Assembly: GCA_001798595.1 (NCBI GenBank)
Contig: MGSS01000114.1
Span: 2,034 to 66,033 of the forward strand
Reading direction: 5' to 3'
From: Deltaproteobacteria bacterium RIFCSPLOWO2_12_FULL_60_19
Lineage (GTDB): Bacteria; Desulfobacterota; Binatia; UBA9968
Length of the DNA: 64,000 bases
A program made the translations under genes and the position numbers. Below the pieces are notes generated by a model. The model had not been told where the DNA came from, did not search any database, and saw only the letters and a program-made list of their open reading frames with translations. Below are positions 13,334 to 14,653 of this stretch, one piece after another. The first letter of the stretch is position 1, and the number at the start of each line of letters is the position of its first letter.

Positions 13334-14653
13334 ATGGCATCCAAACAGGGAACCCGTGTAACCGTCATCGTGCTCGGCGATCTGGGCCGCAGCCCGCGCA
13401 TGAGATACCATGCTCTCGCGCTCGCCGACAGCGGCGTCCAGGTGGATCTGATCGGCTACGCGGGCAGCGCTCTACCGCGGGCGTTGTGCGGCCATCCGCG
13501 GATACGTTGCCATCTGATGGCGCCAATGCCGCTTCGGTTTCTCAATCGCTTTAAAAACGCGCTCTTCCCAGCCGTTTCGCTTGTGAAAATCGTCGTGCAG
13601 GCCGCGCGTCTTTTGTGGCTGCTGCTGTTCGTCGTCGGCAAGCCCGATGCCGTTCTGGTCCAAAATCCCCCGGCGGTTCCGACGCTCATGGTTGCGCTGT
13701 TGTCCGCCCGGCTGCGGTCCGCGAGGCTGATTATCGACTGGCACAATTTCGGCTACACGATGCTCGCTTTGAAATTAGGGTCGTCCAGTTTGATTGTTCG
13801 ATGGATGCGCCGGCACGAGCGGGCGTTGGGCCGCCGCGCGGACGCGCACCTCTGCGTCTCGCGCGCGATGCAGCTCGAATTAGAAAATCACTGGGGGTTC
13901 TCCAAGGCGACTCTGCTCTATGATCGCCCGGCGGCCGGTTTCATGTCCGCCGAGCCGGATGAGCGTCGCGCGCTGCTCCACCGCCTCACGTCCGTCTCGG
14001 CTCTCGTGCCCACGCAGTATCGCCTGGATGCGCCGGCGCGGCCGGCGATCCTCGTCAGCGCGACGAGCTGGACGCAGGATGAAGATTTTGATTTGCTTCT
14101 CGACGCGCTCGCTCGGTGCGATCGGGCCCTTCGACCGTTCGACGGGGCTTACGGCTCAGGGCAGGCCGTCCGCGAGCGCAAACGACTTCCGTTCCCGCGC
14201 CTCCTGATGTTAATCACCGGCGACGGTCCCCTGCGCGAGTCCTATGAAGCCCGCATCCGCGGCATGTCCCTCAACCGCATTCACGTGCAGACGCTCTGGC
14301 TGTCGCCGGAAGATTATCCGCTCTTGCTCCGGGCCGCCGACCTCGGCGTCTGCCTGCACCGGTCTTCGTCCGGGCTCGACCTTCCGATGAAAGTGGCGGA
14401 CATGCTGGGCTCCGGTCTGCCCGTCTGCGCGCTCGACTACGGCCCCTGTCTCGGGGAGCAGCTCCGACACGGCGAGAACGGCCTTCTTTTTTCCGACAGC
14501 GGCGGACTGGCGGAGCAAATCTTGGACTTATTCAATGGATTTCCGGATGAGAGCCCTTTGCTCGATCGATTGCGATGTAACATCTTAGGCTCAACCCGGC
14601 GTCGTTGGTCGGAGGAGTGGCGGGACGCGGCGTTCTCGACCATTATCGGATAG
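13334..14653 (+). CDS. ALG1-like beta-1,4-mannosyltransferase (GT33 family; chitobiosyl-diphospho-polyprenol mannosyltransferase candidate)
   Basis: The similarity to eukaryotic ALG1 covers most of the length (about 40-470 of 472 aa). Matching motifs include [15 protein letters not shown].LIGY (ALG1 PRMQYHALSLA), LVQNPPAVP....[15 protein letters not shown] (ALG1 LQNPPGLP...KLVIDWHNYGYSIM), LCVSRAM..L...W, [21 protein letters not shown] (ALG1 LLVSSTSWTEDEDFSILL), [13 protein letters not shown], and [48 protein letters not shown] (near-identical to ALG1). The ORF track starts at 13235. That longer form would add a hydrophobic N-terminal segment, but it would overlap the divergent gene and include the AT palindrome, so ATG 13334 is preferred. 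Confidence 0.78.
   Translation: [439 protein letters not shown]

Follow-up and report, generated by a model that had tools for sequence, protein, structure and literature searches.

A putative ALG1-type (GT33) beta-mannosyltransferase of Binatia and its predicted protein N-glycosylation gene cluster

Introduction

If a bacterial open reading frame (ORF) carries the conserved blocks of the eukaryotic mannosyltransferase ALG1, is its product a true member of that family, and for what would a bacterium use it? These questions are raised by the ORF at 13334-14653 of a 64,000-nucleotide stretch of DNA (hereafter the window, meaning the whole stretch that was analysed; contig MGSS01000114.1, positions 2,034 to 66,033) from a metagenome-assembled genome (MAG) labelled 'Deltaproteobacteria bacterium RIFCSPLOWO2_12_FULL_60_19', an uncultured member of Binatia from soil or groundwater. 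As judged from full-length homology, the ORF is a genuine bacterial member of the ALG1 family (CAZy glycosyltransferase family 33, GT33) without a transmembrane (TM) anchor, and its product is predicted to be a GDP-mannose (GDP-Man):GlcNAc2-PP-polyprenol beta-1,4-mannosyltransferase, where GlcNAc is N-acetylglucosamine. This TM-less bacterial ALG1 probably makes Man-GlcNAc2-PP-polyprenol for protein N-glycosylation within a cluster of seven genes. The functions of the neighbouring genes, the identity of the lipid carrier and the use of protein as final acceptor are inferred.

Membership in the ALG1 (GT33) Family

13334..14653, plus strand: ALG1-like (GT33-family) glycosyltransferase, 439 amino acids (aa), OGQ79730.1, assigned by ALG1 homology, hidden Markov model (HMM) and a GT-B model

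In the ORF listing, a GTG start gives 13235..14653 on the plus strand and a product of 472 aa, and the ATG at 13334 gives one of 439 aa. The 439-aa product is 100% identical to GenBank OGQ79730.1, which comes from the MAG named above and is labelled 'hypothetical protein A3F90_15365'; this sequence is present on at least 8 contigs, the longest of 66.5 kb, and its nearest relatives belong to Candidatus Binatia and Binatus MAGs. An earlier reading of the letters without database searches (hereafter the sequence-only reading) had proposed that several blocks match the ALG1 core almost residue for residue, and the five blocks that it quoted are all present in the translation of 13334..14653.

The reference ALG1s in our comparisons were database proteins, named by NCBI and UniRef, that were retrieved with a yeast Alg1 sequence as bait; the bait itself was not used as evidence, and the returned database proteins were 99% identical to it. 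BLASTP against Saccharomyces cerevisiae Alg1 (P0121) gave 35% identity over 436 aa (248 bits, E 6e-82), covering residues 8-430 of 439, and a Wickerhamomyces protein labelled 'glycosyltransferase family 33' (P0188) likewise gave 35% identity (E 6e-83). Identity reached 45.5% over 435 aa (E 1e-113) with ALG1 of the glaucophyte Cyanophora paradoxa, 43.6% with that of the chytrid Sorochytrium, and 41.3% each with those of the zoopagomycete Piptocephalis and the amoebozoan Protostelium, values that can be compared with the 33-45% identity that ALG1s of different eukaryotic supergroups share with each other. The BLASTP comparison with eukaryotic ALG1 that the sequence-only reading had proposed as a check returned full-length matches (E 6e-82 to 1e-113), and its claim of an ALG1/GT33 member of ortholog quality is upheld by the full-length identity of 35-45.5% to authentic ALG1s. 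The best-scoring relatives are ALG1-like proteins rather than GT4 enzymes of other function, and the identity extends over the two Rossmann domains instead of being limited to nucleotide-binding motifs, so that neither of the outcomes that would have refuted that reading is seen.

An HMM built from 120 fungal ALG1s only scored the window protein at 348.7 bits (E 4.5e-105). Its specificity was assessed on 1985 ORFs of at least 250 aa, drawn from 85 related loci as well as the window and including numerous GT4 and GT28 genes; ALG1-like ORFs alone matched at E<=10, the lowest at about 290 bits. Pfam assigned generic GT-B domains only (Glyco_transf_4 at 6e-11 and Glycos_transf_1 at 4e-7), and the NCBIfam scan gave no match above cutoff. 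The confident AlphaFold model of the protein (predicted local distance difference test, pLDDT, 88.6; predicted template modelling score, pTM, 0.88) has a two-Rossmann GT-B fold, and the solved structures nearest to it are GT4 enzymes (MshA, BshA, PglA, PimB' and WaaG), at 12-17% identity only. A sequence search of the PDB with the window protein returned nothing relevant, the matches being chance ones to proteasome proteins (E~0.2), and it appears that no ALG1 structure has been solved.

Conserved Residues and Predicted Catalytic Competence

The family alignment comprised 322 sequences, 120 fungal and 202 bacterial. Of its columns, 50 show at least 95% identity, and at every one of these the window protein has the consensus residue. 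Mutations of S. cerevisiae Alg1 (ScAlg1) have been described by Yu et al. (bioRxiv 10.1101/2023.12.27.573458), who found that K367I, H356A and Q136E/N/L abolish activity, that K112I leaves half of it, and that D48A is close to wild type. These five positions (K367, H356, Q136, K112 and D48) map in the alignment to K353, H342, Q110, K85 and D16 of the window protein, where all of them are kept. A motif search found no E-x7-E (EX7E) motif in the window ALG1-like sequence, which fits an inverting GT33 enzyme and not a retaining GT4 enzyme. The sole hydrophobic stretch of the protein is an internal helix (aa 76-104) that corresponds to the third N-domain helix of ScAlg1, an amphipathic helix that offers the lipid a hydrophobic groove (Yu et al.); this helix probably provides membrane and lipid contact in the window protein.

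N-Terminus and Divergent Intergenic Region

The sequence-only reading had further suggested that a longer start, at 13235 or 13250, would add a hydrophobic helix equivalent to the ALG1 membrane anchor, a suggestion that is not borne out. The extension, AILLCVAILCGSGFAA, overlaps the 5' end of the divergent GT28 gene (start 13275) and is the antisense of the Gly/Ala-rich N-terminal loop of the GT28 protein, MATQRRIAIAAGGTAGH. In 82 related loci, the corresponding upstream frame is closed within a few codons or non-hydrophobic, and its maximum 15-residue Kyte-Doolittle mean is at most 1.43, compared with 2.5 in the window; the hydrophobic extension is thus confined to the window sequence. Homologs at 67-70% identity begin with the same MAS... 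at the position of ATG 13334, bacterial homologs begin 7-10 aa ahead of the VLGD motif, and the TM segment of fungal ALG1s (about 35 aa) has no bacterial counterpart in the alignment. An N-terminal anchor formed by AILLCVAILCGSGFAA was therefore rejected, both as antisense of the divergent GT28 N-terminus and as not conserved in the 82 loci, and the window protein lacks the N-terminal TM anchor that is a feature of eukaryotic ALG1. Because TM-truncated ScAlg1 is soluble and active (Yu et al.), the anchor is not needed for catalysis and is not a defining catalytic feature.

13276..13333, no strand: divergent intergenic region of 58 bp between the GT28 and ALG1-like genes, with the AT-rich element TTATATTATAATATAG

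This AT-rich element stands between the two genes in a genome of about 60% GC. A promoter-like match was found on the minus strand (13340->13311), the matches of the promoter/terminator scan being weak and near background. Rather than encoding part of a longer ALG1, the 58-bp region probably serves both genes as a promoter region, and the element within it may be a shared promoter or operator.

Bacterial ALG1 Homologs and Their Distribution

Lombard (2016) found no prokaryotic relatives of Alg1 and called it a eukaryotic innovation. In October 2025, Xu et al. (bioRxiv 10.1101/2025.10.15.682550) reported 204 bacterial ALG1 homologs found by BLAST (E 6e-22 to 1e-104), and archaea without ALG1 except for one dubious match. 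Beta-1,4-mannosyltransferase activity was seen in three of the five bacterial homologs that they tested: GaALG1, PoALG1 and BiALG1, from Gammaproteobacteria, Polyangia and Binatia, respectively, complement yeast alg1-delta and make Man1GlcNAc2-PP-phytanyl that is accepted by human ALG2.

Our protein-database search gave 3162 matches to the window protein, many of them named 'beta-1,4-mannosyltransferase' by JGI, and 1648 representatives of 50%-identity clusters, eukaryotes included, matched at E<=1e-30. Relatives occur in 221 GTDB species representatives; the best 80 of these 221 are all MAGs and fall within Binatia, Methylomirabilota/Rokubacteria, Acidobacteriota (mostly Vicinamibacterales), Myxococcota and a few Pseudomonadota. 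With 221 GTDB species and the 204 homologs of Xu et al., the premise of the sequence-only reading that a bacterial GT33 enzyme is unusual is outdated: bacterial ALG1 is already known, and the window protein is a new member of a recently recognised bacterial ALG1 group.

A neighbour-joining (NJ) tree of 157 family representatives was used for the separation of bacteria from eukaryotes only. In it, the labelled bacterial sequences form one clade with no eukaryotic tips inside. The tree is star-like and does not resolve the bacterial sister group of eukaryotes, nor does it settle the direction of any ALG1 transfer between bacteria and eukaryotes.

Two contigs with ALG1-like genes carry taxonomic labels that probably reflect binning errors. 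One, assigned to a 'Bifidobacterium breve' MAG (CALQBJ020000078.1, L081), has an Acidobacteriota-like ALG1 gene, and the other, assigned to a 'Verrucomicrobiia' MAG (DATJFG010000157.1, L008), has Binatia-type synteny at 62% identity.

The Seven-Gene Cluster

The ALG1-like gene belongs to a seven-gene cluster at window 6936-17745. This neighbourhood, on which the sequence-only reading is silent, is more informative than any other part of the locus. Its six neighbours were assigned by Pfam and NCBIfam scans of the window, in agreement with precomputed gene calls:

9344..12163, plus strand: STT3/AglB/PglB-family oligosaccharyltransferase (OST), 939 aa, OGQ79728.1 (Pfam STT3 at 91 bits, and STT3-PglB_core)
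12166..13275, minus strand: GT28 (MurG-like) glycosyltransferase, 369 aa, OGQ79729.1, annotated MurG (N- and C-terminal Glyco_transf_28 Pfam domains)
7879..8958, minus strand: polyprenyl-phosphate N-acetylhexosamine-1-phosphate (HexNAc-1-P) transferase of the MraY/WecA/ALG7 superfamily, 359 aa (PF00953 at 147 bits)
14757..16595, plus strand: ATP-binding cassette (ABC) exporter, MsbA/PglK-like, with fused transmembrane and nucleotide-binding domains, 612 aa (ABC_membrane and ABC_tran)
16567..17745, minus strand: GT4 glycosyltransferase (Glycos_transf_1 at 50 bits), here GT4b, 392 aa, OGQ79732.1, with the EX7E motif EHFGMAVAE
6936..7853, plus strand: GT2-family glycosyltransferase, 305 aa (Pfam Glycos_transf_2 at 31 bits)

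The OST contains 10 or more TM-like segments, after which comes a large C-terminal domain (about 380 aa). Its profile scores against AglB of P. furiosus and A. fulgidus, PglB of C. lari, and STT3 of yeast and human are similarly weak (21-29 bits). The OST motifs are kept, namely LGDFDSY (D117/D119), SDNDVWN (D238/D240, aligned with D154-x-D156 of PglB), TVGE388 (the TIXE motif) and WWDYGYW at 597. OGQ79728.1 is 926 aa long in GenBank and 939 aa long in the ORF and in other assemblies, the start codon being uncertain. GenBank gives the OST and the ALG1-like gene alike the name 'hypothetical protein'.

The GT28 protein matches E. coli MurG (1f0k) at 204 bits and scores 266.5 bits on the MurG model TIGR01133, above its cutoff of 250.25, while nine cluster-linked GT28 relatives from three phyla score 199-249 bits, below that cutoff. 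No mur or fts genes adjoin the cluster GT28 in the window or in related loci, and no housekeeping murG or division and cell wall (dcw) cluster was found within the 64-kb window. The cluster GT28 family thus appears to behave as one at the edge of MurG, and its window member would add the second GlcNAc, in the role of Alg13/14, to make the chitobiose-PP-lipid acceptor for ALG1.

The PF00953 protein is probably the initiating enzyme, making GlcNAc-PP-lipid. Its best NCBIfam match is WecA, at 107 bits and below the cutoff of that model, compared with 76 bits for MraY, and in the PDB it matches MraY at 55 bits and human DPAGT1 at 32 bits. The ABC exporter, which scores below cutoff on both the MsbA model (298 bits, cutoff 602) and the PglK model (280 bits, cutoff 1000), has a suitable fused architecture and is a candidate flippase for the lipid-linked oligosaccharide; in 21 of 27 Binatia-like loci, an exporter gene is found downstream of the ALG1-like gene. 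GT4b presumably extends the glycan. GT2 is a cluster member in part of Binatia; its homologs, at 51-53% identity, directly adjoin the ALG1-like gene in L004, L016 and L019-L021.

The flanks of the cluster are core genome. Gene calls and domain scans identified RNase PH, Ham1 and HicAB upstream, and tig-clpP-clpX-lon-HU, LptF/G, EF-Tu, rpoB/C, ribosomal operons and rpoA downstream, and the GC content at third codon positions (GC3) of the ALG1-like gene matches that of the surrounding bacterial core genes. Given these core-genome flanks, contamination is excluded.

At window 6087-6514 (converted from the L001 gene calls with an offset of 3333), a HicB-like/HicA toxin-antitoxin pair immediately precedes the glycosylation cluster. 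About 43 kb from the cluster, a PMT_2-type GT-C glycosyltransferase of 558 aa (window 60934-62610, minus strand) is followed by an alginate-lyase-family protein of 364 aa (window 62607-63701, minus strand); a homologous PMT_2/Glyco_transf_22 GT-C gene stands inside the cluster in L005, L013 and L025.

Conservation of the Linkage in Related Loci

Linkage was assessed with tblastn and custom HMMs within 10 kb on either side of the ALG1-like gene; many contigs are short, and the counts are therefore lower bounds. The numbers of loci with each partner were as follows:

Binatia-like, 27 loci: GT28 24, STT3 21, ABC exporter 21, PF00953 8, GT4b 11
Methylomirabilota/Rokubacteria, 7 loci: GT28 7, ABC exporter 4, PF00953 5, GT4b 5; other, AglB-like OST subtype in L039
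Myxococcota, 2 loci: GT28 2, ABC exporter 0, PF00953 2, GT4b 0; other, AglB-like OST subtype in L050
Acidobacteriota-like, 44 loci: GT28 0, STT3 0, ABC exporter 2, PF00953 0, GT4b 0
Beta/Pseudomonadota, 2 loci: GT28, STT3, ABC exporter, PF00953 and GT4b all 0

In the second and third groups, Pfam identified OST genes directly beside the ALG1-like gene, with STT3 and AglB_core-like domains in Rokubacteria (L039:11235-13490), and with STT3, AglB_core-like and AglB_L1 domains in Myxococcales (L050:11276-13912). Two OST subtypes are thus linked to the same module of ALG1, GT28 and PF00953. Other Binatia loci have further genes, including GT-C enzymes (PMT_2/Glyco_transf_22 and YfhO) and a DPM1-sized GT2.

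An ALG2-like second GT4 gene (GT4a; L004:11255-12457, L005:11296-12525 and about 25 other loci) directly adjoins the ALG1-like gene in most Binatia and Rokubacteria loci, the Binatia loci numbering about 24, and also in two loci of Acidobacteriota. According to Xu et al., functional ALG2 has two signatures, a G-I-G-G-A-E-R loop and the EX7E motif E-H-F-G-I-V-P-L-E. GT4a of L004 has both, with a GVGGAER loop and the EX7E motif EHFGYVPLE, which includes the critical valine. GT4b of the window (16567-17745) has EHFGMAVAE and no G-loop. We also considered GT4b as an ALG2- or ALG11-like enzyme and rejected this assignment, since it lacks the ALG2 G-loop and its homologs carry a generic name only.

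The OST-linked cluster and the adjacency of ALG1 and ALG2 genes appear to be undescribed in the open-access and bioRxiv literature that we searched: no description of an ALG1-OST cluster was found there in papers on Binatia/Binatota, Myxococcota or PglB/AglB, and STT3, PglB, operons and gene clusters all go unmentioned in the text of Xu et al.

Just downstream of the Rokubacteria cluster, L039:15041-20464 encodes a protein of 1807 aa with nine Flg_new_2 repeats and Big_2 domains, which is probably a surface protein and a possible glycosylation target. The examples inspected from the groups without linkage (L069 and L036) have unrelated neighbours. In L069 (Acidobacteriota), the solitary ALG1-like gene is directly preceded by a gene for a bacterial type IB topoisomerase (8900-9964), in which Pfam recognises the 'Eukaryotic DNA topoisomerase I' core, and an ORF of 658 aa without Pfam match (11724-13700, minus strand) lies downstream.

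Proposed Pathway

We hypothesize that the cluster encodes an N-glycosylation pathway of six steps. Judging from its WecA-like similarity, the PF00953 enzyme would first transfer HexNAc-1-P, presumably GlcNAc-1-P, to polyprenyl phosphate. GT28 would then add a beta-1,4-linked GlcNAc to give chitobiose-PP-lipid, as suggested by MurG chemistry, the conserved linkage and the known acceptor of ALG1, and the ALG1-like enzyme would add a beta-1,4-linked mannose from GDP-Man to give Man-GlcNAc2-PP-polyprenol, an activity seen by Xu et al. in homologs. Fourth, GT4 and GT2 may add further sugars; fifth, the MsbA/PglK-like ABC exporter may flip the lipid-linked glycan; and finally, the STT3-family OST might transfer it to Asn of periplasmic or surface proteins, as its intact motifs and the conserved linkage suggest.

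A wider proposal is plausible, though we would stop short of calling it probable: protein N-glycosylation in Binatia and, with other OST subtypes, in Methylomirabilota/Rokubacteria and Myxococcota may use a Man(1-3)GlcNAc2 core of the eukaryotic type. A conserved module consisting of a WecA-like enzyme, a MurG-like enzyme, ALG1 and usually ALG2 would build this core, an ABC exporter would flip it, and deep-branching STT3-family OSTs would transfer it.

Alternative Explanations

Several observations weigh against a dedicated N-glycosylation cluster built around an active ALG1. The ALG1-like gene has none of the OST-cluster partners nearby in Acidobacteriota-like and Beta/Pseudomonadota loci, apart from the two exporters counted above, so that physical linkage to an OST is not a constant feature of the family. 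The ABC exporter, by its model scores, is not specifically PglK-like. The GT28 gene, with a score above the MurG cutoff and a strong likeness to E. coli MurG, could be the housekeeping MurG. The ALG2-like gene next to the ALG1-like gene is missing in the window and in the related L008, and a motif search found no ALG2-type motif anywhere in the 64-kb window, which implies that this gene was lost or relocated in the sub-lineage of the window and L008. Further, DeALG1 ('Deltaproteobacteria') and MeALG1 (Methylomirabilota) of Xu et al. were inactive both in yeast and in vitro, and OGQ79730.1, which comes from a MAG labelled Deltaproteobacteria, could be the inactive DeALG1 itself.

The alternative that survives best, though we regard it as unlikely, accepts an ALG1-family beta-mannosyltransferase but assigns the cluster to a non-protein glycoconjugate, such as a glycolipid, a primer of the exopolysaccharide or O-antigen type, or an envelope polymer, with the STT3-like protein having another role or substrate. 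WecA-like initiation serves O-antigen and enterobacterial common antigen as well, the exporter is of a generic MsbA-like type, the host has LptF/G and therefore lipopolysaccharide, and ALG1-like genes of Acidobacteriota and Betaproteobacteria are not near OST, GT28 or PF00953 genes. However, in three phyla the ALG1-like gene adjoins an STT3-family OST gene of one of two subtypes, in which the D-x-D, TIXE and WWDYG motifs are intact, and neither gene calls nor Pfam identified Wzx, Wzy, Wzm, Wzt or O-antigen ligase genes in the cluster. To our knowledge, moreover, every characterised STT3/AglB/PglB enzyme is an N-oligosaccharyltransferase.

Less likely still, and in our view quite improbable, the protein could be a catalytically different or inactive ALG1 paralog, with another donor or acceptor or with no function at all. 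This would agree with the finding of Xu et al. that two of their five homologs were active neither in vitro nor in yeast, with the Deltaproteobacteria label that the source MAG shares with DeALG1, and with the loss of the partner ALG2-like gene from the cluster in the lineage of the window. Inactivity in a heterologous setting, however, may reflect expression, folding or lipid preference. The ORF is intact and keeps all family-wide conserved residues, including those essential in ScAlg1, the window protein has the highest fungal-HMM scores among the bacterial groups, and the gene lies in a conserved cluster in a core-genome region.

Finally, the idea of a generic bacterial GT4 enzyme that resembles ALG1 in GT-B nucleotide-binding motifs alone, or of a eukaryotic contaminant of the assembly, is effectively refuted. 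In its favour, Pfam recognises generic domains only, NCBIfam gives nothing above cutoff, and GT4 enzymes are the closest solved structures. However, the protein shares 35-45% of its residues with ALG1 along its full length, compared with 12-17% for the GT4 structures, the ALG1-specific HMM matches no other glycosyltransferase, the protein has no EX7E, the gene has bacterial core-gene flanks and matching GC3 and is found on several independent contigs, with relatives in 221 bacterial species, and the labelled bacterial sequences form a clade without eukaryotic tips.

Implications

If the wider proposal above is correct, the cytosolic mannosylation steps of the endoplasmic reticulum (ER) pathway would derive from bacterial enzymes that already acted in N-glycosylation on chitobiose-PP-lipid, and not from isolated polysaccharide glycosyltransferases. 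The locus makes the origin of the eukaryotic N-glycan core open to experiment in a bacterial system. TM-less bacterial enzymes and new single-subunit OSTs would also be on offer for glycoengineering of eukaryote-type cores in bacteria. The window provides one genomic example that is well resolved, and the locus merits follow-up on account of the OST-linked cluster and the adjacency of ALG1 and ALG2.

Comparison with Known Systems

The window protein resembles eukaryotic ALG1 (EC 2.4.1.142, chitobiosyldiphosphodolichol beta-mannosyltransferase) in the conserved blocks of both Rossmann domains, in the essential residues, in a presumably inverting GT-B architecture without EX7E, and in the amphipathic/hydrophobic third helix of the N-domain. 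It differs in lacking the N-terminal TM anchor and in that its gene is clustered with those of predicted pathway partners. The host is a bacterium with no ER, where the carrier is presumably of the undecaprenyl type instead of dolichol, and Alg11 and Alg2 partners are absent from the 64-kb window.

The Campylobacter pgl locus for N-glycosylation comprises PglC/A/J/H/I, the flippase PglK and the OST PglB. Initiation in the window would be by a PF00953 enzyme (WecA/ALG7-type), whereas that of pgl is PglC-type, and the core predicted for the window is GlcNAc2-Man as in eukaryotes, in contrast to the diNAcBac-GalNAc heptasaccharide of pgl (N,N'-diacetylbacillosamine and N-acetylgalactosamine). By the 21-29 bits given above, the window OST stands equally far from PglB, AglB and STT3.

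The first two predicted steps, in which a PF00953 enzyme and an enzyme of the GT28 superfamily would make chitobiose-PP-lipid, are like those of eukaryotic Alg7 and Alg13/14, and like those of AglH and Agl24 in the crenarchaeal chitobiose-core pathway, which also includes AglB (PMC8993221). Unlike Alg13/14 and Agl24, the second enzyme in the window is a full-length bacterial MurG-type protein, which is neither split nor Agl24-like.

With the bacterial ALG1s of Xu et al., the window protein shares family and taxa (Binatia, 'Deltaproteobacteria', Methylomirabilota and Polyangia), and its predicted activity is the one demonstrated for three of them. To these enzymes, the loci described here add an OST-linked neighbourhood and an adjacent ALG1-ALG2 pair.

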